64,000 bases of DNA from Candidatus Caldarchaeum subterraneum (GCA_000270325.1 BA000048.1:515709-579708); one strand, 5' to 3'. Counted from the first letter of the stretch, positions 35,277 through 62,182 are shown. The notes: a model not told the origin generated them from the letters alone. Numbers and translations are program-made.

Positions 35277-35663
35277 TTGTCGGCAGATGATGCTGAGCTA
35301 ATGAAGGCGCGGGCAATAGCTTTTCTACGCAACGCTGATAGGCTGATGGAGGAACATGAATGGGACTTGGCGATGTTCAACTTAGAACAATATTGTCAAC
35401 TTATGCTGAAGTATAAGCTGCTAGTTCAGCGTGGAATCTATCCCAAGACACATTCTCTTAGAACGCTCATCCGCATTCTCGGCGAAAACAACCCTGGGCT
35501 ACTCACTATGGTTGAGGATAGCTCAAAGCTTCACTATGTCGCGAGGCTTGAGGAAGCCTACATCGTCTCACGGTATATGCCTTACAGGTTTGAGGAGAAG
35601 GAGGTCAGGGATGTTTACCGGTTTGTGGTAGAGGTGTTTAAGCCGTTTGTCGAGAAGCTATGA
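35277..35663 (+). CDS. HEPN-domain protein (second HEPN/MNT module)
   Basis: THSLRTL and YIVSRYMP motifs, paralogous to 2534..2926. Confidence 0.65.
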   Translation: MSADDAELMKARAIAFLRNADRLMEEHEWDLAMFNLEQYCQLMLKYKLLVQRGIYPKTHSLRTLIRILGENNPGLLTMVEDSSKLHYVARLEEAYIVSRYMPYRFEEKEVRDVYRFVVEVFKPFVEKL

Positions 35664-35967
35664 GGAGAGGCTGCTCGAGTACATGAGGCGCTATAGAGAG
35701 GTGGGCGCAGAGGTTAAACGTATCCTCAGGAAAATCGACCCAGACGTTAGAGTGTTTGTCTTCGGCTCGGTTGTCAGAGGCAGATACACGGCCGCGAGCG
35801 ACATAGACATCCTCGTGCTGACGGATGATTTGTCGAAAAAGTATGAGATGATGGTGGAGGTTTACAGAAGTGTTGAGGCTCCCGTGGAGCTTCACATCAC
35901 AACTCCCCAGAAATATCGGAGCTGGTATAGTAGGTTCATACCGTTGGACGAGCTTGTCGAAATTTAG
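35647..35967 (+). CDS. Minimal nucleotidyltransferase (MNT)
   Basis: VFGSVVRGRYTAASDIDILVL = GS...DxD motif; overlaps HEPN gene. Confidence 0.7.
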   Translation: MSRSYEERLLEYMRRYREVGAEVKRILRKIDPDVRVFVFGSVVRGRYTAASDIDILVLTDDLSKKYEMMVEVYRSVEAPVELHITTPQKYRSWYSRFIPLDELVEI

Positions 35968-37925: not shown

Positions 37926-38145
37926 CCGTCTGGGTAAATGGTTGTTGAGCTGGCTTTTTTATGTTGATTTGTTACCTTTAAATAGACTTCTCAAACCCTG
38001 CAAAACCTATGCAGAATTTATTTATAAACGGGTGTAAAAACTTTCCAGACGTGATGAGAGCGGGTATTTCTGACCGGTGATGACAATACCCGTTCTGAAT
38101 AATACTTGTATTTGGGGTAGGATTTTATAGTAATAATTTTGGTGT

Positions 38146-39624
38146 TTGCGCAGGTTGAGAATCGTTGTTGTAGGCGCCGGAGTGGGTGGTCTAGCGGCCG
38201 CCGCTCTGCTGGCGAGAGAAGGTCACGAGGTGACGGTTGCCGAGAAAAACAATAACGTCGGTGGAAGAGCAGGAGTGCTTAGCCGAGATGGGTTTACCTT
38301 CGACATGGGCCCCACATGGTATCTTATGCCGGAGATATTTGACCGCTTCTACAGCCACTTCGGCAAAAAAACCTCCGATTTTTACAATCTTCTGAAGCTT
38401 GACCCCGGGTACCGTGTCTTCTTTGACGACGGGGTCAAAGTGGATATATCGGCTGAGCTTGAGGAGAACATCCGTCTATTCGACGGGCTCGAGCCCAACG
38501 GAGGTGAGAAGCTGCGCAGATTTCTCGCAAAATGCGAAGAACTCTATAACAGCATATCAAAAACCCTATACCTCGACCTCGACTCTCCTTTCAGCTTCCT
38601 CAACCCGGAGATACTTTCCCAAGGAATCAAAATAAACATCTTCGAATCTGTCGAATCCTATGTAAAAAAATGGTTCCAATCAGACAAGGCCCGTAAACTG
38701 CTTCTCTACTCAATCGGGTTCATCGGTACACCGCCCTCCAAAGCACCCGCGTTCTACGCCATACTTAACTACGTCAAACTTGTCCAAGGCGTCTACATGC
38801 CTGAGCATGGTATCAGACAGGTTGTCGACACGTTGTACGGGTTGGCGAAGCAGGAGAATGTAGAGTTTCTCCTCGGACATGAGGTAAGTAAAATCGAGGT
38901 AACAAACTCGAAAGCCGAACGTGTCTACTTGAACGATTCTTCGATGAAGGTGGACGCCGTCGTCGTCAACGCCGACTATGCATTTTTCGAGACGAGGGTT
39001 CTCGAGCCACGTTACCGCACCTACGACGTCGACTACTGGAGCAAACGCATGTTCACACCATCAGCTCTCATCGCATACTTAGGATTAGACAAAAAAGTTG
39101 AAAATATTATTCCGCACAACGTTTTCCTCGAAAAAGACTGGGGTGAAAACTTTTACCAAATATTCGACCCACGTTACGCGAAATGGCCCGAATACGCCTC
39201 CTATTATGTGCATGTTCCCTCGAAGATAGATAAAACAGCAGCACCACCGGGGGGAGAAGCGGTCTTCATATTAATACCGGTCGCAAACGGCATAGAAGAC
39301 GATGACAAAAAACGCGAAACACTCTTCAACAACGTTCTCCGCGACCTCGAGCAGAAAACCGGGGAAAACATCCACGAAAACATCGTATTCAAACAATTGT
39401 TCAGCATAAGAGATTTTTCAGCACGCTACCACGCATACCGTGGCTCGGCGCTTGGTCTCGCCCACACACTTGGACAAACAGCTTTCTGGAGACCTGTGCA
39501 CAGAAGCAAAAAGGTCAAAAACCTCTACTACACCGGTCAGTATACTCATCCAGGAATAGGTGTGCCGATGGTGTTGATATCCGCGGAGATTATCCGTAAC
39601 AAGCTGCGAAAGGAGTTGATGTAG
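38146..39624 (+). CDS. crtI: Phytoene desaturase (CrtI family)
   Basis: N-terminal FAD fold IVVVGAGVGGLAAAALLAREGHEVTVAEKNNNVGGRA; about 490 aa; followed by phytoene synthase. Confidence 0.8.
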   Translation: MRRLRIVVVGAGVGGLAAAALLAREGHEVTVAEKNNNVGGRAGVLSRDGFTFDMGPTWYLMPEIFDRFYSHFGKKTSDFYNLLKLDPGYRVFFDDGVKVDISAELEENIRLFDGLEPNGGEKLRRFLAKCEELYNSISKTLYLDLDSPFSFLNPEILSQGIKINIFESVESYVKKWFQSDKARKLLLYSIGFIGTPPSKAPAFYAILNYVKLVQGVYMPEHGIRQVVDTLYGLAKQENVEFLLGHEVSKIEVTNSKAERVYLNDSSMKVDAVVVNADYAFFETRVLEPRYRTYDVDYWSKRMFTPSALIAYLGLDKKVENIIPHNVFLEKDWGENFYQIFDPRYAKWPEYASYYVHVPSKIDKTAAPPGGEAVFILIPVANGIEDDDKKRETLFNNVLRDLEQKTGENIHENIVFKQLFSIRDFSARYHAYRGSALGLAHTLGQTAFWRPVHRSKKVKNLYYTGQYTHPGIGVPMVLISAEIIRNKLRKELM

Positions 39625-40509
39625 ATGCTTATTCCAAAGCCTCCGCGTGTGCAGAAAACCTTGTTCAACCTATTCCACAAGGGAAGCACAACATACTTTA
39701 ACAGCACCCTCTTCTTCCCCGACAACGTCAAAAAAGACGTGTTCAAACTCTATGCATTCCTACGTAAAGCAGACAATTACGTAGACCTCATTCCACAGGA
39801 TGTGGAAGGATTCTACGCGTTCAAAGAAGAATATGAGCGAGCCGCATCCGGGTATCAATCGTCTGACATTGTCATCAACGAGTTTGTAGAACTCTCCAAC
39901 AGGAAGAAATTTGAGCAGGAATGGATAACCGCCTTCCTCGACGCGATGGAGTCGGACCTCTACCGCAAAACATACTATACACTCGACGAGCTCTGCGTCT
40001 ACATGTATGGCTCCGCCGAGGTCGTCGGCCTATTTATGGCCAAGATTCTTGATTTGCCTGAGGAGTCCTATATCTACGCAAGGTTTCTCGGTCGGGCGAT
40101 GCAGTACATCAACTTCATTAGAGACATTCGGGAGGATTATGAGCTGGGTCGCCAGTATCTACCCTACGAGGAGATGCGTATGCATGGAATTGAAGATTTT
40201 GAGCCGGCGCGTTTCTGCGGAAAACACGAAAGCTTCGCACGGTTCATTCGGTTGCAAATTGAGCGTTACCTCGAGTGGCAGCGGTTTGCTGAGCAGGGCT
40301 ACAAATACATACCGTACCGCTATTTGATACCTATTAAGACGGCGGCGGACATGTACAAGTGGACGGCTAAAATAATTCACAGACATCCGTCGATAGTTTT
40401 TATGCGTAAGGTGAAGCCGAGAAAGCGTAGGGTAGTTTACGGGGCCAACGTCAACTTTGTATTGGCTCTTCGACACAAAATTTTTACCGGGGGGCTGGTA
40501 TGGCCCTAG
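39625..40509 (+). CDS. crtB: Phytoene synthase (squalene/phytoene synthase family)
   Basis: KLYAFLRKADNYVD and YMYGSAEVVG regions typical of CrtB; abuts crtI and overlaps the next gene. Confidence 0.75.
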   Translation: MLIPKPPRVQKTLFNLFHKGSTTYFNSTLFFPDNVKKDVFKLYAFLRKADNYVDLIPQDVEGFYAFKEEYERAASGYQSSDIVINEFVELSNRKKFEQEWITAFLDAMESDLYRKTYYTLDELCVYMYGSAEVVGLFMAKILDLPEESYIYARFLGRAMQYINFIRDIREDYELGRQYLPYEEMRMHGIEDFEPARFCGKHESFARFIRLQIERYLEWQRFAEQGYKYIPYRYLIPIKTAADMYKWTAKIIHRHPSIVFMRKVKPRKRRVVYGANVNFVLALRHKIFTGGLVWP

Positions 40510-41366
40510 AAGCTGTCCAGAAAGTGCTTAAGGTCTCACGCTTTCGTTTCTGGATTTATGTGGCAGGTCCATACGTAGTCGGCTACACACTCGGCGCCAC
40601 AGGATTCAGCGACTTTCTCCGACCCGAGTACTACATCTATCTGATCTATTTCTTCATCCCCGCTAACATATTGGTCTACGGTGTTAATGACTATTTTGAT
40701 GTTGAGACGGATGCGTTGAATCCGAAGAAGAGTTCGAAGGAGCTGCGAATTGTTGGCAGAGATAGGGTTAGGCTGCGGAGGCTGCTTCTCGGTGTGCTTG
40801 GTATAAGCTTTGCATTAATGCTTTTCCAGGATAATGTGGCGCGTATCCTGTTCGGTGGATTTCTGTTTCTCTCGATTTTCTACAGCGCGCCTCCGTTGCG
40901 TTTCAAGAGTAAACCCTTCCTCGACTTCGCCTCGAACTATCTCTACATCATGCCGGGGGTCTTCGGCCACTACATCGCCTCAGGCAGCCTTCCCGATACA
41001 CTCATACTTCTGGCAGGGTTTCTACACATATCCGCTATGCACATCTTCTCAGCAGTTCCCGATATAGAGTTCGACCTAGCAGCAGGAATCAAAACAACCC
41101 CGGTTGTCATCGGCAGAAAAAACGCGCTAATACTGGTGACAGTTTTCTGGGCAGGCCTTGCATATTTAGCAATCATGCTAACGGGATTTCATCCTCTAAG
41201 CTTTTTGGCACTAATCTACCCCATGGTGCCGCTGTCTGTTCTGGTTTTCGGACGCGACATAAACCGTGTCTACTGGTCTCTTCCATACATCAACACATCT
41301 TTGGGCGGGCTTCTCTGGCTAGGACTCGTCAACCACAAGATCATCCCGTTTTTCCCGAATTTTTAG
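40500..41366 (+). CDS. UbiA-family prenyltransferase, possibly a carotenoid (lycopene) elongase
   Basis: NDYFDVETD (NDxxDxxxD) and DIEFD Asp-rich motifs, polytopic membrane protein, translationally coupled to crtB. Confidence 0.6.
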   Translation: MALEAVQKVLKVSRFRFWIYVAGPYVVGYTLGATGFSDFLRPEYYIYLIYFFIPANILVYGVNDYFDVETDALNPKKSSKELRIVGRDRVRLRRLLLGVLGISFALMLFQDNVARILFGGFLFLSIFYSAPPLRFKSKPFLDFASNYLYIMPGVFGHYIASGSLPDTLILLAGFLHISAMHIFSAVPDIEFDLAAGIKTTPVVIGRKNALILVTVFWAGLAYLAIMLTGFHPLSFLALIYPMVPLSVLVFGRDINRVYWSLPYINTSLGGLLWLGLVNHKIIPFFPNF

Positions 41367-41375
41367 AGAACCGTT

Positions 41376-41903
41376 ATGCAGATTTTTAGGCCATATGTTG
41401 ATTGGGCTAGGTCGGCCGCGGTTCTCGACGACCTGCGTCTAGGCAAACAGCGTGTAGAGTCCAAGCAGGTTCTGAACGTTTTTCTACGGAAGGCCGGTAT
41501 TCTCAGAGATGGGTTGCGCGGCTGGCTTAACCATCCGATTGTTCTACTTTACTACAACGACGGCAGGCCCTATGTCGACGACGTGGTGGGAATGTTCATC
41601 GCTTGTGTCAAAGAATGGGTGAGACGGGGAAAACAAAACAGCATAAACCTCGATGACATAAAGCATCTCCTCGACCAGCTAGAGAAAACACCCGGCACGC
41701 CTATTACCCATCTCCACGAAATAGAGTATCGGCGAATTCTTCTACTAAAAAACCCCAGCCATTACATCAAAACCTTCACAGAGGAGGAGGTTAGAGAGGT
41801 GTTGGAGACCGAGCCCGTGAAAATAAGCGGCATAAACTCTTGGTTATTTGATGACATGCGGCGTTACAGGCGGCTTTTGAAGAAAATTAGGGCGAGGCTA
41901 TAG
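41376..41903 (+). CDS. Hypothetical protein; weak resemblance to the pyrimidine-dimer DNA glycosylase (UV endonuclease) family
   Basis: N-terminus MQIFRPYVDWARSAAVLDDLRLGKQRVESKQVL...GWLNHPIV recalls the MxIWRxHP...WRE...NHP pattern; unverified. Confidence 0.3.
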   Translation: MQIFRPYVDWARSAAVLDDLRLGKQRVESKQVLNVFLRKAGILRDGLRGWLNHPIVLLYYNDGRPYVDDVVGMFIACVKEWVRRGKQNSINLDDIKHLLDQLEKTPGTPITHLHEIEYRRILLLKNPSHYIKTFTEEEVREVLETEPVKISGINSWLFDDMRRYRRLLKKIRARL

Positions 41904-42386
41904 CTTGTATCCTATTTTTCTGAGGAATTGTTTGCGGGCCTCGATGTGCTGCTCGGTTTCTATGCCTTTTGGCTTGTGGCCGTCGACTACTCCGAGGACG
42001 CCGCGGCCCTGCTCTGTCTCGGCGACTATTATCTGGAGGGGGTTAGCTGTGGCGGCGAGGATTGTGCATACCTCGGGCACGTCCTTGAGCCGCTGCATGA
42101 TGTTGATGGGGTAGAATCCCTTGATGAAGAGGATGAAGGTGTGGCCGCATCCTATCCTGAGCATGGTTTCGGCGGCGTGTTTCCGCAGCTCCGGGTCAGT
42201 TCCCTCATGGCGGACGAGGCATTCGCCGCTCGCCTCCATGAAAGCGAGGCCAAATTTAGCCCCCGGAACCGTGTTGACAACCGCCTCGTAAATGTCTTCG
42301 ACGGTTTTGATGAAGTGGGAGACGCCGAAGACCACGTTGCAGCCCTCAGGAATCTCGACACCAACAACCTCTATCTTAACGCTCAC
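41898..42386 (-). CDS. Adenosine-specific kinase family protein (COG1839-like)
   Basis: FGVSHFIKTVEDIYEAV, GECLVRHEG, PINIMQRLKDVPEV, GRGVLGVVDG match remembered family pattern. Confidence 0.5.
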   Translation of the reverse strand: MSVKIEVVGVEIPEGCNVVFGVSHFIKTVEDIYEAVVNTVPGAKFGLAFMEASGECLVRHEGTDPELRKHAAETMLRIGCGHTFILFIKGFYPINIMQRLKDVPEVCTILAATANPLQIIVAETEQGRGVLGVVDGHKPKGIETEQHIEARKQFLRKIGYKL

Positions 42387-42418
42387 AACACTCGTTGTCG
42401 CGGCTTGCTTATGTGTTT

Positions 42419-43483
42419 TTAGAGGGTTCTTTCGACGAGGAATGTTGCGAGTTTTTTGAGCTTTGTCTTGGCTGGTGTGTCGGCGAGAAGAGGCTCAACC
42501 CTGCTCCATGCCATGTGAACGCTTCGCCGCATAACCTCCCGAGCATATTTGTCTGCGCCCGATTCTCTGATGAGGTTGATTGCTTCTTTGAGCTCTTGTT
42601 TGTCGGATGTGTGGCTGTGAAGTATCTGTCTGAGTCTTTTCGCTTTTTCGGATGAGAGATGTGTCAGGGCATACACCGTCATAAGGGTGTATTTGCCCTC
42701 GGTTATGTCGCCGCCTATCTCCTTCCCGTATCTCGCCTCGTCGCCGAAGATGTTGAGATAGTCGTCCTGTATCTGGAAAGCTGTTCCAACAGCTTCACCG
42801 AAGCGGCCAAGCTCCTCGAGAAGGTCTCCGCGTCCGGCGTATATGGCTGCAAGCTCGACGGCGAACCTTGACAAAGCACCTGTCTTGAAAGCAGCCATCT
42901 GGAGATAATGCTCCTCGGTGATGTCTGTTACGAGTCCTCGGTGCCATACGATGTCCATGGTTTGGCCGAGGCTGAGCCTTGTCATCGTCTCGACATATTT
43001 CTCGAGAAAGAGTGTGGCCATGTTTTTGGGCAGCTTTTTCGCGGCTAAGTATGCCGGGATGTAGTAGTAGGCGTTGCCTGCGTTGATGGCGATGTCTATG
43101 CCGTAGATGCGGTGGATGCATGGCTCTCCTCTTCTCATGAGGCTTCCGTCCTCTACGTCGTCGACTATCAAGGTGGCGTTGTGGATGATTTCGGGAACAG
43201 CGGCCAAGATGTAGATGCCAGGGTCTCCGCCGCCCAGAGCCTCATAAACTATCACCGTCAAAGCCGGCCGCCATCTCTTGCCTCCTCTCCTGAAAAGCTC
43301 CCAAAACGGTTTAGCCAGCCCCTCGGTAAATGACTCGGGGCTGTAGCGGTAAACAGGCTCACCAAACTCCTTCACGAGAAAACCTGTGTCAAACATTCTG
43401 GGTGTGAGCTTTTCAACAGCCTTCTCCACAGGCTCCACATATTCGGAGAGAATTGACAGAACCTCGTCCTCTAAGCTCATCAC
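42419..43483 (-). CDS. Geranylgeranyl diphosphate synthase (polyprenyl synthase family)
   Basis: First and second Asp-rich motifs LIVDDVEDGSLMRRG and FQIQDDYLNIFGD. Confidence 0.8.
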   Translation of the reverse strand: MMSLEDEVLSILSEYVEPVEKAVEKLTPRMFDTGFLVKEFGEPVYRYSPESFTEGLAKPFWELFRRGGKRWRPALTVIVYEALGGGDPGIYILAAVPEIIHNATLIVDDVEDGSLMRRGEPCIHRIYGIDIAINAGNAYYYIPAYLAAKKLPKNMATLFLEKYVETMTRLSLGQTMDIVWHRGLVTDITEEHYLQMAAFKTGALSRFAVELAAIYAGRGDLLEELGRFGEAVGTAFQIQDDYLNIFGDEARYGKEIGGDITEGKYTLMTVYALTHLSSEKAKRLRQILHSHTSDKQELKEAINLIRESGADKYAREVMRRSVHMAWSRVEPLLADTPAKTKLKKLATFLVERTL

Positions 43484-44328: not shown

Positions 44329-45414
44329 TTACGGTAGCTGGGAGACGGGCTTGATTCCCAGCTGCTCCAGTATCTTATCTATTTCTTCACCGTTTTCTTC
44401 GCCGATTCGCTGGTCGACGCTGGTGGGTGTTATCTCGTTGATCTCGACCACTTGCTCGGTTGAGGAGAGGCCGGTGAGTATCAGTGAGACCTGCATCGTG
44501 GAGCTGAAGGTGTCGTCTATCCGCGCACCCCATATCACCAGCCCATCTTCACCCATCAGCTCCGAGATAATCTCCGCCGGCCTCGCCGCTTCCGCCAGCT
44601 GCATGTCCTCCCCTCCGCAGACATGGACTATGGCTCCTGAGAGGTTTTCGTAGGATGCGTCCAGTAGCGGGGACTGGAGAGCGTTAAAGGTGGCTTCCTC
44701 TGCTCTGTTGGGTGTGGAGGAGCGGCCTACTCCAAGTGATGCGAGTTTGCCGCGGCTCACTACTGTTTTGAAGTCTTCGTAGTCGATGTTTATCAACCCG
44801 GGTTTTGCGATGGACTCTGTTATGCTCTGTATCATGTTGCTGATGATTTCGTCGGCGAGGCTGAAGGCTCTTCGCAGGTTGTGCTGTGGATAGAGGTCGA
44901 GGAGCTTGTTGTTATCAACTACAACCGATGTGTTGGTGTAGTTTTTCAGCTCCTCGAGTCCCGCTTGTGCAATTCTTTTCCTCACCATGCCCTCGAATTC
45001 GAATGGGAGAGAGACGACGCCGACAACCGTCGCGCCTTCTTCACGTGCTACGCGCGCTACGACCGGTGCTGCTCCTGTTCCCGTTCCTCCTCCAAGACCC
45101 GCGGCGAGGAAGACGATGTCCGCTCCTTCAAGGGCCCTGCGTATCTCCTCCTCAGATTCTTCGGCGGCTTTTCTTCCACGGACTGGGTCGCCTCCTGCTC
45201 CACGGAGCCGGGTCACCGATTTGCCGAGAAGAATTTTCTTGTCGGCTCTAACCATGTCGAGATGCTGCAGGTCCGTGTTCGCGGCTATGGTGTATACGCC
45301 TGTGAGACCGAGGGCGTTGAGCCTGTTGACGGTGTTGCAGCCGGCTCCGCCTACTCCGATTAGCTTGATTCTTATCTCCTCTGTGGTCTGGACAAAGTCT
45401 TCCACGCTACTCAC
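44329..45414 (-). CDS. ftsZ: FtsZ/tubulin-superfamily GTPase (FtsZ-like)
   Basis: IKLIGVGGAGCNTVNRL and tubulin signature GLGGGTGTGAAPVVA. Confidence 0.8.
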   Translation of the reverse strand: MSSVEDFVQTTEEIRIKLIGVGGAGCNTVNRLNALGLTGVYTIAANTDLQHLDMVRADKKILLGKSVTRLRGAGGDPVRGRKAAEESEEEIRRALEGADIVFLAAGLGGGTGTGAAPVVARVAREEGATVVGVVSLPFEFEGMVRKRIAQAGLEELKNYTNTSVVVDNNKLLDLYPQHNLRRAFSLADEIISNMIQSITESIAKPGLINIDYEDFKTVVSRGKLASLGVGRSSTPNRAEEATFNALQSPLLDASYENLSGAIVHVCGGEDMQLAEAARPAEIISELMGEDGLVIWGARIDDTFSSTMQVSLILTGLSSTEQVVEINEITPTSVDQRIGEENGEEIDKILEQLGIKPVSQLP

Positions 45415-45747: not shown

Positions 45748-46116
45748 ATGGTTGATGAGATGCATTACGAAGAATTTCGAAAAACACTCGAAAACCTTGT
45801 AGCAGAAGCAGTCGAAGATGTTGTTGTTCTTGTGGAGGGCGCGCGGGATGAGAAGGCGCTCCGCCTCGCTGGTGTTCGTGCAAAAATAGTGTATGTTAGC
45901 AGGTTTCGTGAAGCGGTGGAGATGATGCCGAGGCCGCGTAAAATCATTCTGCTTCTCGATTTTGACAGCGAGGGGATGAAGACTGTGAAGAGAGTTTCTC
46001 GGCTGCTGAGGCAAATGGGTTACGAGGTTGACGAAAGCTATCACAGGCGGCTACGTGTGCTCAAGCGCTTCGGCATCACAACCGTCGAGGCGTTGGCGAA
46101 ACTCCTCGAGGTTTAG
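45748..46116 (+). CDS. Small Toprim-domain protein (COG1658-like)
   Basis: VVLVEGARDEKAL and ILLLDFDSEG resemble Toprim Glu and DxD elements. Confidence 0.5.
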   Translation: MVDEMHYEEFRKTLENLVAEAVEDVVVLVEGARDEKALRLAGVRAKIVYVSRFREAVEMMPRPRKIILLLDFDSEGMKTVKRVSRLLRQMGYEVDESYHRRLRVLKRFGITTVEALAKLLEV

Positions 46117-48158
46117 CCCTCCTCGGGCAACAAGTCAGAAAACCCTCCAGCAACCCTTATCACGGTGTATTTCTCCTCGAGCAGCCGCTCGTAAACATCC
46201 CTACCAAGGCCAAACTCTCTGCAGAAACTTTGGAGAGCGTCGCTGAGCAGCTTCAAGTCTGTTTCGCCGAGTCTGCGATAGGACACAAGATGTTCTCTGT
46301 AGTATTTTGAGGTGTAGAGTTTTGATATGCGTTTGAAGGGCTCGGGTGGAAGGTTTTCGCGGAGGTCTTGGATGGTAATTTTCTTTAGCGTGGAGAGTTT
46401 TGTGTATGTTTGTTGGTCTATTTGGCCTTCGAGCAGGAGGCCTCGGAGATATCTTTTGACGTCTTCTCTAGGAGGCTGGAGCCCTATCCGCCATCTGTCG
46501 ACACGTCCCCTGATGTAGATGACGCCGCCGACCATTCCCGTTGCCACACATCGTCCGACCAAGCATTCGTCGCTGTCAAAGCTGTCCACACCGAGAACTG
46601 CGACAACTCCGCCGGCCATGTATTCGCCGAGATAATCATCAACCCTCCCGCCAATTATGAGGTAGGGCTTGTGTTCACGGAATTCACGCATCTGGATAGC
46701 CACTCTGTTGCCCGCGCTCCCCCGGACAAAGATTTCACCGGCTTGGAAAGCCTGCGCCAAAACATCTCCCGCGTTCCCATGTATGATTACGCGGCCGCCA
46801 ACCATCGCGTCGGCTACATCGTCTTCAGCGTTCCCGTAAACGGTTATGACTCCGCCTCTGTTGAAGTTGGCTAAACAGTTTCCCGCTGTGCCGTAGATGT
46901 TGAGAAATCGTCCCGGAGGCACGTTGACGCCGAGATATCTGTGGCCGTTGACGTTGACAACATCCACTTTCTCCGCGCCTTTTGCGAAAAGCTCGGCAAC
47001 TATTTTGTTGACGCGTCGGTAGTCGAGGCCCGCAGCGTCGACAACCCTGCTGGGATATGGGGGCTTTTCTATTCTTGGCTGATAAAGGGTGATGTTCTCT
47101 CTTCCCGAGACGATTATGCCTTTCTTTAGCGAGGCGAGGAAAATTCCGCCGGGCTTGACGGGCCAAACAACCGCTTCAGGAGAGTTCTGCCTTATCTCCG
47201 CCTCCTCGCTCGCCACATATATTCTCTCTTCGTCGTAGCCGACTACAAGGGGCCTGAATTTTGACCTGTCAGCCAAAGCGAGCATGTAGATGTCTTCGCC
47301 GTCGCAGTATCCTGCTACCACGCTGAATGGGCCGTCGAGGCCTGCTCCCCGCCATCGGACATATTCATCCACCTTGTCGAGGTCGTCTTCAAAACCGCTG
47401 ACGAGCAGCTGAGCCGCATGCAGAATTGGGAGACGCTGTATGTTGGTGAGGTAGTCGAGGAGATAGGCTATGAGCTCGCTGTCTGTGCCGACGAAGCTTC
47501 TGTAGCCGCGGAACCTGATGAACTCCATGTTTGCCCCGAAGCTGCTGATATCTCCGTTGTGCGCTATGGCCCATTCCTGGCTCGCGAATGGATGAGACCA
47601 TATGGGGTAAACGCCTGGCGAGTTGGTTGGCTGCCGAGTATGAGCTATCCACATATCCGCCTCAAGGTTTTTCTCCGTCAAGCCATACATCTGTGAGACA
47701 TCGAGGGGGTATCCGACGCCTTTGAAGACCTCGACAAACCTGCCCCATGAATAAACTCTTCCACGCATGCCCGCGTTCCAGAGCTCGTAGTTAATGCTGT
47801 CGACAAGTTTCCTCAACGTTTCCTCGGATGTCTCCACGTAGGCGCTCCACGATGCGAACCTGCTTGCAGGAAGGCTGTCGAACCCCAGCTCGTAGAAACC
47901 TCCGTTAACACGTGTCTTGAGAATCTTCTTAACATGTGAGAGGGTGGTTTCCGAGTCTATGAATATCTTGAGCCTGTGCATGCCGTTGTTGCCGTCGAGG
48001 CTGTAGGCGGCGAAGCCTGCCCCAAGCCTGCTGCCCCTATACCTGACACATTCTATCGATGAAACAGCTTCCTCCACCGACACTTTCTCCGCGTCCTGTT
48101 TACGGAGGATGCCGAGTATTCCACATGCTGATATCTCTCGCCGCGGCTCCATGCTCAT
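46113..48158 (-). CDS. Glutamate-synthase-like protein: class II (Ntn) glutamine amidotransferase domain fused to GXGXG domain
   Basis: [18 protein letters not shown] (Cys after an 11-residue propeptide), AHNGDI; C-terminal repeated GxGxG-type beta-helix segments (VYGNAEDDVADAMVGGRVIIHGNAGDVL...). Start moved from 48386 to the internal Met at 48158. Confidence 0.6.
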   Translation of the reverse strand: MSMEPRREISACGILGILRKQDAEKVSVEEAVSSIECVRYRGSRLGAGFAAYSLDGNNGMHRLKIFIDSETTLSHVKKILKTRVNGGFYELGFDSLPASRFASWSAYVETSEETLRKLVDSINYELWNAGMRGRVYSWGRFVEVFKGVGYPLDVSQMYGLTEKNLEADMWIAHTRQPTNSPGVYPIWSHPFASQEWAIAHNGDISSFGANMEFIRFRGYRSFVGTDSELIAYLLDYLTNIQRLPILHAAQLLVSGFEDDLDKVDEYVRWRGAGLDGPFSVVAGYCDGEDIYMLALADRSKFRPLVVGYDEERIYVASEEAEIRQNSPEAVVWPVKPGGIFLASLKKGIIVSGRENITLYQPRIEKPPYPSRVVDAAGLDYRRVNKIVAELFAKGAEKVDVVNVNGHRYLGVNVPPGRFLNIYGTAGNCLANFNRGGVITVYGNAEDDVADAMVGGRVIIHGNAGDVLAQAFQAGEIFVRGSAGNRVAIQMREFREHKPYLIIGGRVDDYLGEYMAGGVVAVLGVDSFDSDECLVGRCVATGMVGGVIYIRGRVDRWRIGLQPPREDVKRYLRGLLLEGQIDQQTYTKLSTLKKITIQDLRENLPPEPFKRISKLYTSKYYREHLVSYRRLGETDLKLLSDALQSFCREFGLGRDVYERLLEEKYTVIRVAGGFSDLLPEEG

Positions 48159-49105
48159 CCCTCGCCAGCCATCTTCACACCGAGCAAGGCCCTCACCTCT
48201 CTGCCCAGCTCTATGGCCCGCAGCAGCTCCCTGTTGCCCACCAAGGTGTTGAAGACGCTGGAGACACCGGCCGCTCCGGCCAGCAGCTTTATCTCCCTCT
48301 GAAGGCCGAGGAGAAGGTTCTCCATCTTCTCCTGAACGATGGAAACGGTTTGGGTCTTCACGGGCTCGAGTGCTTCTTCGACGCATGCGGAGAGTAGCAC
48401 GGCGTCGGCTCCCAAGGCGACGAGCTTGAACACGTCATCAGCGCCTCTCACACTCCATCCACCTGCGACAAGGCCCACTGTGTTGCGTACACCGTGTCGA
48501 CGGAGCTCACGGTCGAGAAGCGCGACAACAACCTCGAGTTCGGCGTCTCCACCCAAATCCTCGTCAACAACCACTCCAGAAACATGCTCCAGAACAGGCG
48601 GGAGCCATGAGAAGTCTGTCGAGGAACCTACATGGGCGAAAAAGGGCCCACCCACATCACTCACACGCGTCGGCTCAGCAAAGTAGCCAGCGAAAACTCC
48701 TCTATATGCAGGGTCTACAACAAGGGCCTCACCGTAATTCTCCAACTCCGCTGGGTTTTCCAGCATCATCAAAACACCCATACAGTAGCAGGCGCGGACA
48801 ACGCCTTCTATGAAAACGCGGGGCAGATGGGCGCCGAGCTTCACGGCAACAGGCATCGATAGCCTGAGCCTCCCTCCGCGGAGATAGACATGTGTTTCAA
48901 CAGGTTCGCGGTAGGGGTCGATGCTCGGCCTCGTCACCTGCGCGCCGTCTATGACTATGTGGTCGCGTATGAAGAATGGCGCATCCACGTATGGAGGAGC
49001 TGTGCTGCCCATGCTTACTATCGGTGGCTCAGCCGGCTGCCTGCCGATAACACCAGCCATCTCCCGAAGATGCTTTACACGGTCCTCTGTCCATCCTCTA
49101 AGCAA
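48155..49105 (-). CDS. Glutamate-synthase-related TIM-barrel protein (divergent)
   Basis: 316 aa, [15 protein letters not shown] resembles the FMN-domain paralog downstream; lies between two glutamate-synthase domain genes. Confidence 0.4.
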
Positions 49106-50333
49106 GCGGCTTCACCCCCATGACGCTTAGCTGGCTCGGCTCGACGCCGCGGGACACGAGCAAATCTCTCCGTCCACATAGTTCTCCGACGCTTTTCACG
49201 CCGACCTTGTCGAGGATGAGCTTCAGCTCCTCTGTCCATCCGTTCACCATGTTCACAACCCATTTGGTCGCCGTGTCAAGGGAAAGAAGCTTAACGGGGT
49301 TGTCGTCGATTTTGTTGGTTAACACGGCGGGGCAGAAGCCGAGGTGGCACTTATGCACCATGATACAGCCCATCGCAATCAACGAAGCTGTGCCAAGCGA
49401 GACAAGGTCCGCGCCCAGCGCTATCAGCTTCGCGGTGTCCTCCGCGCTGCTCACACGACCAGCAGCAACCACGGAGAACCCTTCACGCAAACCCTCGCGT
49501 CTAAGCATCTCATCAACCACGGGAACAGCTATCTCGACAGGCAGCCCAACATTATTCCTCACAACCGCGGGCGCCGCACCCGTCCCCGCACCCTGACCAT
49601 CCAAGATAATTCCATCCGCACCCATCCGCGCAACACCGCAGGCGATGTAGCCGATGTAGTTCGTCACACCGACCTTGACGAAAACAGGCTTGCCAGTGGC
49701 TTCCTTCAGAGCCATAATCCGTTGGCCAAGGTCCTCGATGGAGTAGATGTCATGGTGGGGTGCTGGAGAGATGGCGTCGACGCCCACGGGTATGCGCCGT
49801 GTCTCGGAGATGAGGCGCGACACCTTTACTCCCGGAAGGTGGCCTCCTATGCCAGGCTTCGCACCCTGCCCAATCTTGATAACAATACCCAGCCCCGTCA
49901 TCAACACGTCGATGTCGACGCCGAAGCGTGCAGAAGCCCACTGCACAGTAATTCTCCTACATTTTCTCACCTCGGGGTGAAGACCTCCTTCACCCGTGCC
50001 CGTGAGTATCCCCGTCAAATCCGCTGCACGGGCGAGGGCTATGTTGGGGACGCCGCTGAGGGCTCCGAAGCTCATGTCGCCGAGGTAGATGGGTGTGGTG
50101 AGGGTTATCTCCCCGCCGGCCATGGAAACGGATGCATCGACACCCGCTACCTGTTTAACAGTCTCCCTTTCATCGTCTTCAAGCTCGGCCTTGAACACCA
50201 GCCTGTCGAGGAGACGGCGTGAAGAATGCTTGGCCCTGTCCCACACCCAAACAGGCTCACCGAACCGGGCCAGCTGCCTGATATGCTCAATCCTCGTCCT
50301 GTTCCAGAACTCGGGCCCCTCCTGCCTCGGCAC
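49098..50333 (-). CDS. Glutamate synthase FMN-binding (GltB-type) domain protein
   Basis: [18 protein letters not shown] and [18 protein letters not shown] signature motifs. Confidence 0.7.
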
Positions 50334-58654: not shown

Positions 58655-61600
58655 TTATGCAGCTCTTGCAGGTGTTTTCGAGATTTGTAAAGTTTCTCTG
58701 TACAGTTCTTTTAGAACTTCTTGGTAGCTGACCTTACCAGACTCGATACTCTCCATGAGCTCCTCCAGCCTCCTCGTCAACGCCTCGGAGACAAACGAGC
58801 CAAAATTCGACACGAGATATCCATAGATTGTCTTACCCAGTTTTGTCGCCAGAACTCTTCCATTATCGTTGAAAATGTATCGTCTCTTGTAGAGGAGGTT
58901 GAGGACCTGTGCGTAGGTGCTCGGCCTGCCTATGCCTCGTTCCCTCATCAAGGCGATTATGTCACCTTCGCGGAAAAACGGCACCGCCTGCATGCTCTTG
59001 ATCTGGAGGTTCAGCACCCTGTGGACACCCGGTTCAAGCGCCTTCACCGTCTTGATGACTTGGTAGAGGTGGAGGAACCCTGGCTCAATAACATCTACAA
59101 TCCTCTCTATATCATAGGTTTTCCCGAGAATCATCAACTTGCATATCTGTCTCTGCACCAGCGCGTCCTTCATCTGACTAGCCATGAAACGTCTAAACAC
59201 AAGGTCGTAGAGCATAAACTCTCTATCACCTATTCGCATCGGCACTCTAATCAAACCCGACTGGAGATAAAGCTCGAGCTGCTTTCTCGAGAGCGGTTTC
59301 GTCGGCCTGATGCATTCATGTGCACCTGGTTCGCCATGATGCCTCGCCACAAAAAGCCCTGGAAAGTTCTCTTCAAGATAATTTCGAGCCACCGATAACC
59401 CTGTCGACGAGACATACGTCGACCCCGTTCTATGATAAGTTATCAGACCTGACTCGAAGAGGGTCTGGGCAGCATCCATCGCCTCCGCAGCACTCAGCCT
59501 GAGAAAAATCGATGCATCCCTTAGGAGAGAATCGGTCGTATAGGGCTTGACAGCAGGTACAACCGTCTCAACATACTTTACATCAGCCACCTCCACATTC
59601 AACACGCCCTCGGCATAGAGTCTCTTGACAACGTCAACATCCTCAATGCTGTCTAGCATGAGCTCGGAGCCGTCTTCAAACGTCATGCTTGCGACTAGTC
59701 TCTTCTTCTTAGCCTCTTCCATCCTTTGGATTATCCAGCCGAGGACAGGGGTTTGGACACGGCCTGCCGAGAGATGTTTTTCTCCGAAAAACTCCCAGAG
59801 ACGTCTGCTCAGCTCAAAGCCAACCCACCTATCCTCAATCCTTCTCACAACCTGTGCCTCGACAAGCGGCAGCGAAATACTGCGAGGAGACTTGAACGCA
59901 TCCCGCAAAGCCTTCCTCGTAATCTCATGAAGCTCAAGCCTCTCAATCCGCTTGTTAAACGGCCAAATACTCACATAGAGGTCGTAGCCAATCTTCTCAC
60001 CCTCCGTATCAGGGTCGGTTGCAATAAAGACACGGTCAAACTCGAGCGCCAGTTTACGGAGAGACTCGATTATGGATAGCTTGGTAAAGTATTTATCGGA
60101 GCGGCAGTTGGGACATACTTCGCTGTCCGTAAACTGCTCTCCACACTTAGAGCATCTCCTAATATCCACATACATCGGCACAAACTCTCCATCATGGACC
60201 CAGACACCATGGAACCCCTGGCTCGTCGTAATGTCCACCAAATGCCCCTGACAAGCGGTGAGACACGCGACATATCCCTCGCCAACCGACTCGTAAACAG
60301 TCAGTCCATCAACAACTCGTCTAGCAGGTTTTCCGAAGAAATAGGCCAGTGTACGGGCCTTCGTAGGCGACTCGACAACAATCAGCGACGAGCTCAAAAT
60401 ATCTAAGGACTCTAGTCTAGCCGACCCTGTTCTAATCTCTCGCAGAAACTGTCTATCTCTATCACATTGCTTAAACTCCTCCCTGGCTTGCTCCAAGGTG
60501 TATTCTTGGAACGTTTCTTCATAAATGGTTTCGAGGGCTCTCGAGATGCCTCTAAAAGCTTTCTCGTCATCTACTATGAGGATGGATATTCCACGGGTTA
60601 TGCCTCCCGCATACATCCTCGACGAGCGGCCCGACGCCTGTATATATCCATCGATGTCGGGAAGAATGATAGAGACACCGTTCTCGTCTACACGTAATCT
60701 CATGTCTAGGTTCTCTGCGACACGTCTCAGCTCCTCTTCACCGATGTATGTTTTTAGAAGTTGATGAGCTCTCGTGACAGCTGAGTAGACGTATCCCGCA
60801 AATCCTTCGGGCTGTCTAGAGGATTCAAGCCCCTCTCTGACAATCTCCAACACCTCCCTATCGGTGGGGACACATTTCTTCAACATGCCGGTGACCTGTA
60901 CTAGTTCGGACTCGTTCTTCTCCCTAAGTATCGAGTACAGGTTTCTGAGGAGGCTGAGCAGCATAGAGGGCCTGTGCTCTCGCCAAGACACGTTAAGCTC
61001 ACGCCTGGGAACACCGGCGAAAATTACGTATCTTATCCGCTCCGGTAAGTCTATGCCTCTGGCTAGAGGGCTTCTCCTGCTAGCGACACCGACCAAGACA
61101 TCATACTCGCCCAACTCAAACCGACCAAGCATCTTCGCATCCATCCTCTCGTAAGCATATGCGCTAATACCCTGGCTGTTCAGAAATTTTGCCAGCTCTT
61201 TAGCGGACTCGACGCCCGCTGTCTGCGGCACAAAAATCAGACATCCGCCGCCATGTGTCTTCACCAGCTCAGCAACCTGCTCCCACATGTTCTTGCTTGG
61301 ACGCAGATACATGTTGGAGATGTTTCTGACAAACTCTATTGAGCCTCCGGGCTCAAAGTTTAGAAGGCGTCTGAACAGTTGGATTCTCTTGGTTCTCCGG
61401 CCCTTCGCAGTGGCTCCGGCTACAAGCAATATAGAGTCGGGCTTCGCAATTTCTCTAGAAGCATGCTCCCCTGCCTCATTCTTCTCAGACCTACGCGAGA
61501 CTAGGCTTAATTGTCTCTCTATCTCTTCTTCATCAAACCCCATTAAGAGAAGAACCTTGTCGATGTTCCTCGCCGACTTGAGGAAAGAGTCTACATCATC

Positions 61601-62182
61601 AACAAAAATGAAGGAGAACTTTTTTCCTCTCAGAAGCTCGAAACGTGTGTTGAGGAAACGGTCTGTAGTAACCAGAATGTTAAACTCCTCATCCCTTATC
61701 TTCTGCAGCATCTCTTCCGCCTCGCTCTTTTTCATGCCGGAAAAGTATCCAGCGATTTTTGGTGCTTTTTCTCCATGTTTGGCCGCCATCGATAAGGCTC
61801 TTTCATGGATTTGTTGTGCAAGGAGGCTTGTGGGGACGATTATGTAGGATTTTTTCCCCTTGGACGCTTGGTAAATGGCCATCGCTATGAAGAAGGTTGT
61901 CTTCCCCGTTCCCGTCGGAGAAACTATTGAGAAGCTTCTTCCAAGGAATGTTCTTCTAATCCATGTCCGCTGCAGAGACCATGGAGGGGAGCCAACGACT
62001 CTGCTGAAAAAATCCGCAAACTCTCTATATCTTTCCTCAAGCTCCAAAGCCTTTGTATATTTTCCCGGCTTAAGCCTGCCATCCTGCGAAACACATCTGC
62101 TACAAACTCCGTTACCAATAAGCTCCTCATCGGTTATTGCCCCTCCACAGTTTGGGCAGAGAGATGCATAGATCGACTTCAA
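58655..62182 (-). CDS. rgy: Reverse gyrase
   Basis: 1175 aa: N-terminal Zn finger CPNCGG...CSRC, helicase Walker A PTGTGKTT, topoisomerase IA Toprim IVESPTKARTL, second Zn finger CSKCGE...CPNC. Confidence 0.9.
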   Translation of the reverse strand: MKSIYASLCPNCGGAITDEELIGNGVCSRCVSQDGRLKPGKYTKALELEERYREFADFFSRVVGSPPWSLQRTWIRRTFLGRSFSIVSPTGTGKTTFFIAMAIYQASKGKKSYIIVPTSLLAQQIHERALSMAAKHGEKAPKIAGYFSGMKKSEAEEMLQKIRDEEFNILVTTDRFLNTRFELLRGKKFSFIFVDDVDSFLKSARNIDKVLLLMGFDEEEIERQLSLVSRRSEKNEAGEHASREIAKPDSILLVAGATAKGRRTKRIQLFRRLLNFEPGGSIEFVRNISNMYLRPSKNMWEQVAELVKTHGGGCLIFVPQTAGVESAKELAKFLNSQGISAYAYERMDAKMLGRFELGEYDVLVGVASRRSPLARGIDLPERIRYVIFAGVPRRELNVSWREHRPSMLLSLLRNLYSILREKNESELVQVTGMLKKCVPTDREVLEIVREGLESSRQPEGFAGYVYSAVTRAHQLLKTYIGEEELRRVAENLDMRLRVDENGVSIILPDIDGYIQASGRSSRMYAGGITRGISILIVDDEKAFRGISRALETIYEETFQEYTLEQAREEFKQCDRDRQFLREIRTGSARLESLDILSSSLIVVESPTKARTLAYFFGKPARRVVDGLTVYESVGEGYVACLTACQGHLVDITTSQGFHGVWVHDGEFVPMYVDIRRCSKCGEQFTDSEVCPNCRSDKYFTKLSIIESLRKLALEFDRVFIATDPDTEGEKIGYDLYVSIWPFNKRIERLELHEITRKALRDAFKSPRSISLPLVEAQVVRRIEDRWVGFELSRRLWEFFGEKHLSAGRVQTPVLGWIIQRMEEAKKKRLVASMTFEDGSELMLDSIEDVDVVKRLYAEGVLNVEVADVKYVETVVPAVKPYTTDSLLRDASIFLRLSAAEAMDAAQTLFESGLITYHRTGSTYVSSTGLSVARNYLEENFPGLFVARHHGEPGAHECIRPTKPLSRKQLELYLQSGLIRVPMRIGDREFMLYDLVFRRFMASQMKDALVQRQICKLMILGKTYDIERIVDVIEPGFLHLYQVIKTVKALEPGVHRVLNLQIKSMQAVPFFREGDIIALMRERGIGRPSTYAQVLNLLYKRRYIFNDNGRVLATKLGKTIYGYLVSNFGSFVSEALTRRLEELMESIESGKVSYQEVLKELYRETLQISKTPARAA

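Follow-up and report, generated by a model that had tools for sequence, protein, structure and literature searches.

We examined a 64,000-nucleotide stretch of the genome of Candidatus Caldarchaeum subterraneum (GCA_000270325.1 BA000048.1:515709-579708), referred to here as the window, which carries a group of genes predicted to direct the synthesis of an elongated carotenoid. A preliminary description of the window had placed a phytoene desaturase gene (crtI), a phytoene synthase gene (crtB) and a gene for a UbiA-family prenyltransferase next to one another, and had noted a reverse gyrase elsewhere in the window. Our analysis confirms the positions of these genes and the abutting or overlapping arrangement of the first three, assigns their products to Pfam families at E-values that leave no room for chance, and adds a fourth gene that follows on the same strand. 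The genome is already public and its genes have been annotated automatically; what we present is an orthology-based prediction. The features on which it is built are the following.

38126-38132 (+): TATA-like box TTTATAG, 5' of crtI; read from the sequence, with a presumed promoter role
38146-39624 (+): open reading frame (ORF) for a CrtI/CrtD-like, flavin adenine dinucleotide (FAD)-dependent carotenoid desaturase; likely start TTG at 38155; 492 amino acids; Pfam Amino_oxidase, E 4e-37
39625-40509 (+): CrtB-like head-to-head prenyl diphosphate synthase of the phytoene synthase family; 294 amino acids; Pfam SQS_PSY, E 1.6e-49
40500-41366 (+): LyeJ-family UbiA prenyltransferase, predicted lycopene elongase/1,2-hydratase; 288 amino acids; Pfam UbiA, E 2.2e-26
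41376-41903 (+): homologue of pyrimidine-dimer DNA glycosylases (T4 endonuclease V family), fourth gene of the putative operon; 175 amino acids; PF03013, E 7.9e-12
58655-62182 (-): reverse gyrase, with reverse-gyrase zinc finger, DEAD helicase, Toprim and topoisomerase IA domains

The ATG of crtB directly abuts the TAG stop codon of crtI and has an AGGAG shortly before it; crtB runs 10 nucleotides into the UbiA gene (ATGGCCCTAG), and the ORF of the glycosylase homologue begins 9 nucleotides past the UbiA gene. We think it fairly likely that the crtI/D, crtB, lyeJ-like UbiA and pyrimidine-dimer glycosylase genes form a single four-gene operon. The true start of crtI is probably the TTG at 38155 and not the codon at 38146. 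This TTG aligns with the ATG of crtI orthologues in three relatives and is located 23-29 nucleotides past the TTTATAG box, whose TT-TAT core is invariant in six sequences of the Caldarchaeum lineage (alignment A2). The distance between box and start codon implies that the crtI transcript is leaderless or nearly so. A scan for promoters and terminators was uninformative, its consensus being bacterial and the host an archaeon.

In comparisons of the window with its two closest relatives, the ratio of nonsynonymous to synonymous substitution rates (dN/dS) is 0.07-0.11 for crtI, crtB, the UbiA gene and the fourth gene (0.07-0.10 for the last of these), so the operon is under purifying selection and not a relic. 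Thermophily of the host is supported by the reverse gyrase together with the identity of the organism; the window UbiA is 100% identical to an NCBI protein of Ca. Caldarchaeum subterraneum.

Family assignment of the cassette enzymes

The UbiA protein of the window scores 335.9 bits on NF009516 (PRK12875), a curated NCBIfam model with a cut-off of 205 bits. The same model recognizes the prenyltransferases at the lyeJ position of two haloarchaeal carotenoid clusters, those of Halarchaeum and Halocatena (397-426 bits), as well as the methanogen orthologues of the window protein (349-365 bits). The next models, PRK13595 and PRK13105, give about 111 bits, and chlorophyll synthase models about 50 bits. 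Two Asp-rich motifs, N63-D64-x2-D67-x3-D71 and D188-x3-D192 (NDxxDxxxD and DxxxD), are invariant in alignment A1, and the protein aligns over its full length with its Halarchaeum counterpart (37% identity), with the motifs in common. Many of its orthologues carry the Joint Genome Institute (JGI) label 'lycopene elongase/hydratase'. Based on family model and gene context, we predict that the window UbiA is a LyeJ-type lycopene elongase/hydratase.

The preliminary description had envisaged that the UbiA protein might instead group with digeranylgeranylglyceryl phosphate (DGGGP) synthases or quinone prenyltransferases. In that case the gene would stand beside the crt genes by chance, which would be compatible with bare membership in the UbiA family and with the nearest solved structures, AfUbiA (4tq3) and a DGGGP synthase (6m31), both matched with weak E-values. 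The protein reaches only 33-39 bits, however, on models for DGGGP synthases, whose cut-offs are 269-353, and 18-31 bits on UbiA/MenA/MqnP models; for the DGGGP synthase, chlorophyll synthase, UbiA and MenA models, no cut-off is under 180 bits. Moreover, 74 of 80 loci have the three genes in the same order, and SQS_PSY and UbiA domains occur fused in single proteins (see below). We hold this alternative to be barely credible and, as far as sequence family and gene context go, regard it as refuted; judged by its scores, the window UbiA is neither a DGGGP synthase nor a quinone prenyltransferase.

A phylogeny of the UbiA protein had been proposed as a check. Within a library clustered at 50% identity, which holds 316 representatives at E <= 1e-30 against the UbiA profile, the UbiA proteins of Aigarchaeota and methanogens are merged into a single representative, which scores 484 bits; the runner-up reaches 319 bits. 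We built a bootstrapped neighbor-joining tree of 155 UbiA sequences, comprising the window protein, its relatives and the 50%-identity representatives, with haloarchaeal LyeJ, Arthrobacter CrtEb and Haloferax paralogues as comparison sequences. The Aigarchaeota and methanogen proteins form a clade with 100% bootstrap support, the sole supported grouping in the tree. The check therefore places the protein in this clade but gives the clade no placement relative to LyeJ, as the deep nodes have support near 0%.

The desaturase matches NF058655, the NCBIfam equivalog 'CrtID, bifunctional phytoene desaturase/3,4-desaturase', with 603.3 bits (cut-off 640), its residues 6-483 aligning to positions 1-477 of the 478 in the model. 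The next-best equivalog, CrtD, reaches 209 bits only, and the match to TIGR02734 (crtI_fam) scores 429 bits. With 666-702 bits, methanogen orthologues of the desaturase exceed the CrtID cut-off; the desaturases of the Halarchaeum and Halocatena clusters score 750-754 bits. The window CrtI and that of the Halarchaeum cluster are 40% identical in an end-to-end alignment and share motifs.

The synthase can likewise be aligned end to end with the Halarchaeum CrtB (31% identity), and both of its Asp-rich motifs are readable; at 294 residues it is shorter than the enzymes of the haloarchaeal clusters (338-348 residues). HpnD heads its NCBIfam matches with 110 bits, and the matches that follow include phytoene synthase models. 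Taken at face value, the HpnD match would suggest an HpnCDE-type squalene pathway, in which SQS_PSY enzymes act together with the FAD-dependent HpnE. Yet the HpnD score is far under its cut-off of 278.6 bits, the pathway needs two SQS_PSY genes where one is present, and the desaturase scores 51.6 bits on HpnE (cut-off 283), through its N-terminal FAD motif only. The CrtB proteins of the haloarchaeal clusters give a similar order of matches, HpnD first and all below cut-off; this shared pattern is therefore uninformative and does not count as evidence against a phytoene synthase. Family scores, conserved gene order and gene fusions lead us to reject HpnCDE-type squalene synthesis, which we consider highly improbable here. 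The synthase is predicted to use geranylgeranyl diphosphate (GGPP) and to give a C40 product, chain length itself not being readable from sequence.

The haloarchaeal bacterioruberin cluster crtD(crtI)-lyeJ-cruF, with crtB, has been characterized in Haloarcula japonica (Yang et al., 2015, as cited in PMC8305020 and PMC9258230). We compared the window with the plasmid-borne clusters of Halarchaeum sp. CBA1220 (L081; crtB-crtI-prenyltransferase-cruF) and Halocatena salina (L082; crtI-prenyltransferase-cruF-crtB). The window has the same three enzyme families, encoded by adjacent and co-oriented genes. Its prenyltransferase passes NF009516, as theirs do, NF058655 is the best match of its desaturase as of theirs, and one CrtI-family desaturase would apparently serve for both the phytoene and the 3,4-desaturations; the window also shares with the Halocatena cluster a nearby glycosylase gene. 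That a UbiA gene within a crtIB operon represents the haloarchaeal type of arrangement, as had been suggested, is supported by the common NF009516 model and by CrtID as the best match of the desaturase. The window differs in its order of crtI-crtB-prenyltransferase, in sequence (31-40% identity), in its shorter CrtB, in a desaturase that falls just below the CrtID cut-off, in that no cruF was found, in the DNA-repair gene within the operon and in its host, a thermophile that is not a halophile.

Actinobacterial clusters of the decaprenoxanthin type offer a second parallel, in that a UbiA-family protein, CrtEb, elongates lycopene by C5 units and is accompanied by crtB and crtI (PMC2889829). In our example, from a plasmid of Arthrobacter sp. 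StoSoilB13 (L083), the CrtEb-like protein is 27% identical to the window UbiA and scores 469 bits on PRK13105 but only 132 bits on NF009516, the model that the window UbiA passes. The frame of this Arthrobacter elongase extends upstream by about 110 residues that, by our reading of the sequence, resemble a CrtYe/Yf cyclase; no such extension was seen in the window.

Distribution of the cassette and its links to DNA-repair genes

A scan with the UbiA alignment over one genome per GTDB species returned 123 relatives, and 80 loci were examined. In 74 of these, crtI, crtB and the UbiA gene are collinear on the same strand; the contigs of the other six stop inside the cassette. Fifteen of the loci belong to Caldarchaeales and 65 are non-Aigarchaeal (L016-L080). 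The cassette occurs in Methanobacteriaceae (cultured Methanobacterium oryzae, strains ACI-7 and MBAC-LM and one metagenome-assembled genome (MAG) of Methanothermobacter), in Methanosarcinaceae (Methanolobus, Methanosalsum natronophilum), in Methanomicrobiales (Methanoculleus, namely M. sediminis and M. nereidis, Methanocalculus and Methanogenium), and in Methanomassiliicoccales, Methanofastidiosa, Methanosuratincola, Hadarchaeota and various Thermoplasmata MAGs. The cassettes of these non-Aigarchaeal groups are 46-53% identical to the window in CrtI, 47-61% in CrtB and 53-63% in UbiA. Hence the cassette is not special to thermophiles and is widespread in anaerobic methanogens. The cassettes of methanogens and other anaerobic archaea are the nearest relatives of that in the window and have identical order and strand; they differ in that about half have an adjacent cruF, none has the glycosylase gene and their hosts are mostly mesophilic strict anaerobes. 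At two methanogen loci a second CrtI-family gene lies just 3' of the UbiA gene (L035, 7077-8468 (+), 49% identical to the window CrtI; L077, 6906-7535 (+), 29% identical).

Among archaea, carotenoids have been documented chemically only in haloarchaea and a few Sulfolobales (PMC6770870), and those of methanogens were listed as unknown in a 2022 review (PMC9410494). Methanogen CrtB and CrtI sequences already appear in the carotenoid trees of Klassen (2010; PMC2889829), and to that extent the present advance is incremental. In our search of the literature, no paper turned up that treats carotenoids of Caldarchaeum or Aigarchaeota, and none that describes the conserved crtI-crtB-UbiA cassette or connects it with genes of pyrimidine-dimer repair.

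The association of synthase and prenyltransferase extends to gene fusion. Proteins with an N-terminal SQS_PSY and a C-terminal UbiA domain make up five of the best 150 UbiA representatives at 50% identity (P0156, P0175, P0211, P0256 and P0245; 471-630 amino acids), one of them from Candidatus Doudnabacteria, a bacterium of the candidate phyla radiation (CPR). On the sequence level these fusions are a Rosetta-stone link, and their domain order matches that of the overlapping crtB and UbiA genes of the window.

Of the 65 non-Aigarchaeal loci, 34 have a gene of family PF04240 (cruF) beside the cassette. One such flanking protein, scored on NCBIfam, reached 174 bits on TIGR03460 CruF (cut-off 154.7). 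With cruF beside crtI-crtB-UbiA, these 34 loci encode the full predicted gene set for bacterioruberin. Examples of cruF genes in methanogen loci are the following.

L040, 6837-7586: cruF gene beside the cassette
L022, 6823-7575: cruF gene beside the cassette
L061, 6870-7634: cruF gene beside the cassette

The combination of crtI-crtB-lyeJ and cruF is present in cultured strains of Methanobacterium, Methanoculleus, Methanocalculus and Methanosalsum as well. A CruF-like gene was found neither in the 64-kb window nor in the 15 Caldarchaeales loci, the rest of the genome not having been searched, nor in the loci of Methanomassiliicoccales, Methanofastidiosa and Hadarchaeota that we examined. A database search with the Methanosuratincola CruF gave 45 matches, none of them Aigarchaeal. 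Since no cruF was found, the predicted Caldarchaeum product is an acyclic C50 diol resembling bisanhydrobacterioruberin, and not bacterioruberin.

The fourth gene of the putative operon suggests a connection between the cassette and the repair of ultraviolet (UV) damage. Its product scores 45.8 bits on PF03013 (gathering score 23) and has homologues in Caldarchaeum, Nitrososphaeria, Thermoproteus, Pyrobaculum and Vulcanisaeta, in a family from thermophilic archaea whose members are annotated 'pyrimidine dimer DNA glycosylase'. Searches with the protein gave no sequence match to a solved structure, and a BLASTP comparison with the Halocatena glycosylase gave nothing significant. In the window, and likewise in seven relatives (L001-L005, L008 and L012), this gene comes next after that for UbiA. 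In another member of the phylum, Aigarchaeota archaeon SKYB10 (L011), the UbiA gene is followed directly by a gene for a class II photolyase (6909-8294 (+); PF00875 match; 430 bits on TIGR00591, full length). Thus two different enzymes predicted to repair pyrimidine dimers have become attached to one type of cassette. A pyrimidine-dimer glycosylase gene is located about 2 kb from the Halocatena cluster. Taken as sequence context, these links between repair genes and the cassette point to a role in protection against light or oxidative stress.

A related association has been described in subgroup E of the Thermoprofundales, whose clusters combine carotenoid genes with genes for DNA photolyase, UvsE and heliorhodopsin (PMC9585477). 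As in Caldarchaeum, the hosts are non-halophilic archaea in which predicted bacterioruberin or zeaxanthin gene sets are linked to the repair of light-damaged DNA (PMC9585477). They differ in lineage (Thermoplasmatota), in gene set and order and in the presence of a rhodopsin; no rhodopsin was seen in the window.

Proposed pathway and alternatives

Reasoning from orthology for substrates, products and role, we propose that the operon in the window probably makes a bacterioruberin-type C50 carotenoid. The model for the proposed steps is the haloarchaeal pathway described by Yang et al. (2015) and summarized in PMC8305020, PMC9258230 and PMC13358004. CrtB would join two molecules of GGPP head to head to form phytoene, which CrtI/D would convert to lycopene. 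At each end of lycopene, the LyeJ-type UbiA would then add a C5 unit from dimethylallyl diphosphate (DMAPP) at C-2 and water at C-1, giving first a C45 and then a C50 intermediate, into which the same CrtI/D desaturase would introduce the 3,4 double bonds. Since no CruF was found, we expect the pathway to end in a C50 diol that is acyclic and resembles bisanhydrobacterioruberin. The pigment would most likely serve as a membrane antioxidant or photoprotectant, and its genes would be co-expressed with that of a predicted repair enzyme for UV-induced pyrimidine dimers. The earlier reading of elongated carotenoids in a thermophilic archaeon is thus one that family models, gene context and the reverse gyrase support.

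Several observations weigh against this proposal. The window proteins are only 31-40% identical to their haloarchaeal counterparts; the desaturase falls slightly short of the CrtID cut-off; the synthase passes no NCBIfam equivalog, and its closest solved structures are C30 CrtM enzymes. Some 100 of the 50%-identity representatives, all uncharacterized, are nearer to the profile of the UbiA clade than is the haloarchaeal representative, and in the UbiA tree the deep nodes are almost without support and the outgroups fall inside, so that the position of the clade relative to LyeJ cannot be fixed. A Haloferax larsenii paralogue that lies outside any carotenoid cluster scores 223 bits on NF009516, so the specificity of this otherwise good model is not perfect. 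In addition, the cassette is found mostly in strict anaerobes, from which carotenoids have not been reported (PMC9410494), and a CrtI-family homologue of Methanosarcina acts in hydroxyarchaeol synthesis and not in carotenogenesis, according to work cited in PMC10821996.

Part of this evidence could be accommodated by a C40 pathway in which the UbiA homologue does not elongate lycopene by C5 units, being only a 1,2-hydratase or prenylating some other acceptor, with a C40 or otherwise modified carotenoid as product. The identity of the UbiA protein to genes at the haloarchaeal lyeJ position is 33-37%, its clade is tight and separated by a gap in score from the other representatives (484 bits as against 319 or less), NF009516 admits the paralogue just mentioned, and cruF is absent from the loci of Caldarchaeales, Methanomassiliicoccales and other lineages. 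Against such a pathway stand the invariance of both prenyl-diphosphate-binding motifs in UbiA, the full-length alignment with haloarchaeal LyeJ and its shared motifs, and the methanogen orthologues that adjoin cruF, whose assigned substrates are solely the C5 side chains of C50 carotenoids. We judge this alternative unlikely, although it deserves to be kept in mind.

A different possibility is that the cassette makes a head-to-head isoprenoid that is colorless or has few desaturations and that regulates membranes. Such a product would be a C30-C40 hydrocarbon or diol, the CrtI homologue then being a limited desaturase or a hydratase. This would explain why anaerobes carry the cassette, which is commonest in strictly anaerobic methanogens without reported carotenoids, and it would fit both the CrtM-like closest structures of the synthase and the Methanosarcina CrtI-family protein reported, in work covered by PMC10821996 and PMC9128505, to make hydroxyarchaeol. 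The desaturase, however, scores 603 bits on CrtID and at most 209 on the next equivalog, the synthase shares its below-cut-off order of matches with haloarchaeal CrtB, UV-repair genes are appended to the cassette in Aigarchaeota, and cruF is linked to it in methanogens. Overall, we consider a product of this kind quite improbable.

Returning to the C50 pigment, we can extend the proposal beyond the window, with more reserve. Bacterioruberin-type C50 synthesis by way of crtI-crtB-lyeJ(-cruF) may be no speciality of haloarchaea but a widespread archaeal trait, carried by one tightly conserved cassette in thermophilic Aigarchaeota and many lineages of strictly anaerobic methanogens, that was joined twice in Aigarchaeota to pyrimidine-dimer repair genes as a light- or UV-protection operon; we offer this view tentatively, giving it slightly less than an even chance. 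If the cassette is active, C45 and C50 pigments would be made by hot-spring Aigarchaeota and strict anaerobes, and the use of bacterioruberin-type pigments as markers of halophiles would need rethinking. A membrane-spanning polar polyene would then be a candidate membrane stabilizer or antioxidant in thermophiles, and thermostable LyeJ, CrtI and CrtB enzymes would become accessible. Cultured methanogens that bear the cassette make the prediction directly testable.

Neighboring genes and other features of the window

Downstream of the operon, two genes are encoded on the opposite strand.

41898-42386 (-): 'adenosine specific kinase'; Pfam PF04008
42419-43483 (-): short-chain trans-prenyl diphosphate synthase, GGPP-synthase-like; 354 amino acids; Pfam polyprenyl_synt, E 8.8e-68

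The second of these had been described as a convergent GGPP synthase lying just downstream of the carotenoid genes. It is indeed convergent, but it does not lie just downstream, as the glycosylase homologue (41376-41903 (+)) and the adenosine-specific kinase gene intervene. The closest solved relatives of this polyprenyl synthase are the archaeal GGPP synthases 1wy0 and 5jfq, and every NCBIfam equivalog is below cut-off. Its first Asp-rich motif is preceded by IIHNATLIVDDVED, in which position -5 is not occupied by an aromatic residue, a motif context that we take to resemble that of type III GGPP synthases. The gene adjoins the cassette only in L001, L002, L004, L005, L008 and L012, and the adenosine-kinase-like gene, the polyprenyl synthase, a nitroreductase and FtsZ occur beside the cassette only in close relatives of Caldarchaeum. 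Because its adjacency is limited in this way, we regard the polyprenyl synthase as a local neighbor and not as part of the module, although by its sequence it is a probable supplier of the GGPP substrate for the cassette.

The FtsZ gene is at 44329-45414 (-), and close relatives likewise have it near the cassette. Beyond it, a split archaeal-type glutamate synthase region spans 46113-50333 (-); its GXGXG/GATase_2 domains lie at 46113-48386, its Glu_synthase domain at 49098-50333. Far upstream of the operon, a giant ORF of 2596 amino acids at 4448-12238 (-) has a single C-terminal CarboxypepD_reg domain as its sole Pfam match and possibly encodes a surface or adhesin-like protein. Two small overlapping ORFs are located at 35277-35663 (+) and 35647-35967 (+), the second with a GS...DxD nucleotidyltransferase-like motif (FGSVVRGRYTAASDIDILV); from these sequence features, the pair may be a toxin-antitoxin system of the HEPN/MNT type.

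Finally, an element resembling a canonical archaeal C/D-box small RNA (sRNA) lies 5' of crtI, at 38051-38098 (+). It consists, in order, of GTGATGA (box C), GAGCGGGTATTT, CTGA (D'), CCG, GTGATGA (C'), CAATACCCGTT and CTGA (D). Across L001-L005, L008 and L012, neither the boxes nor the guide cores vary, whereas the D'-C' spacer does and the intergenic flanks are unconserved. Matches to Rfam are full-length and below threshold, and include the archaeal C/D families sR2 (22.4 bits, E 0.004), snoPyro_CD and sR9. The two guides are complementary to one another over 8-10 nucleotides, so the element may target both strands of one ribosomal RNA helix, or may itself be a hairpin.

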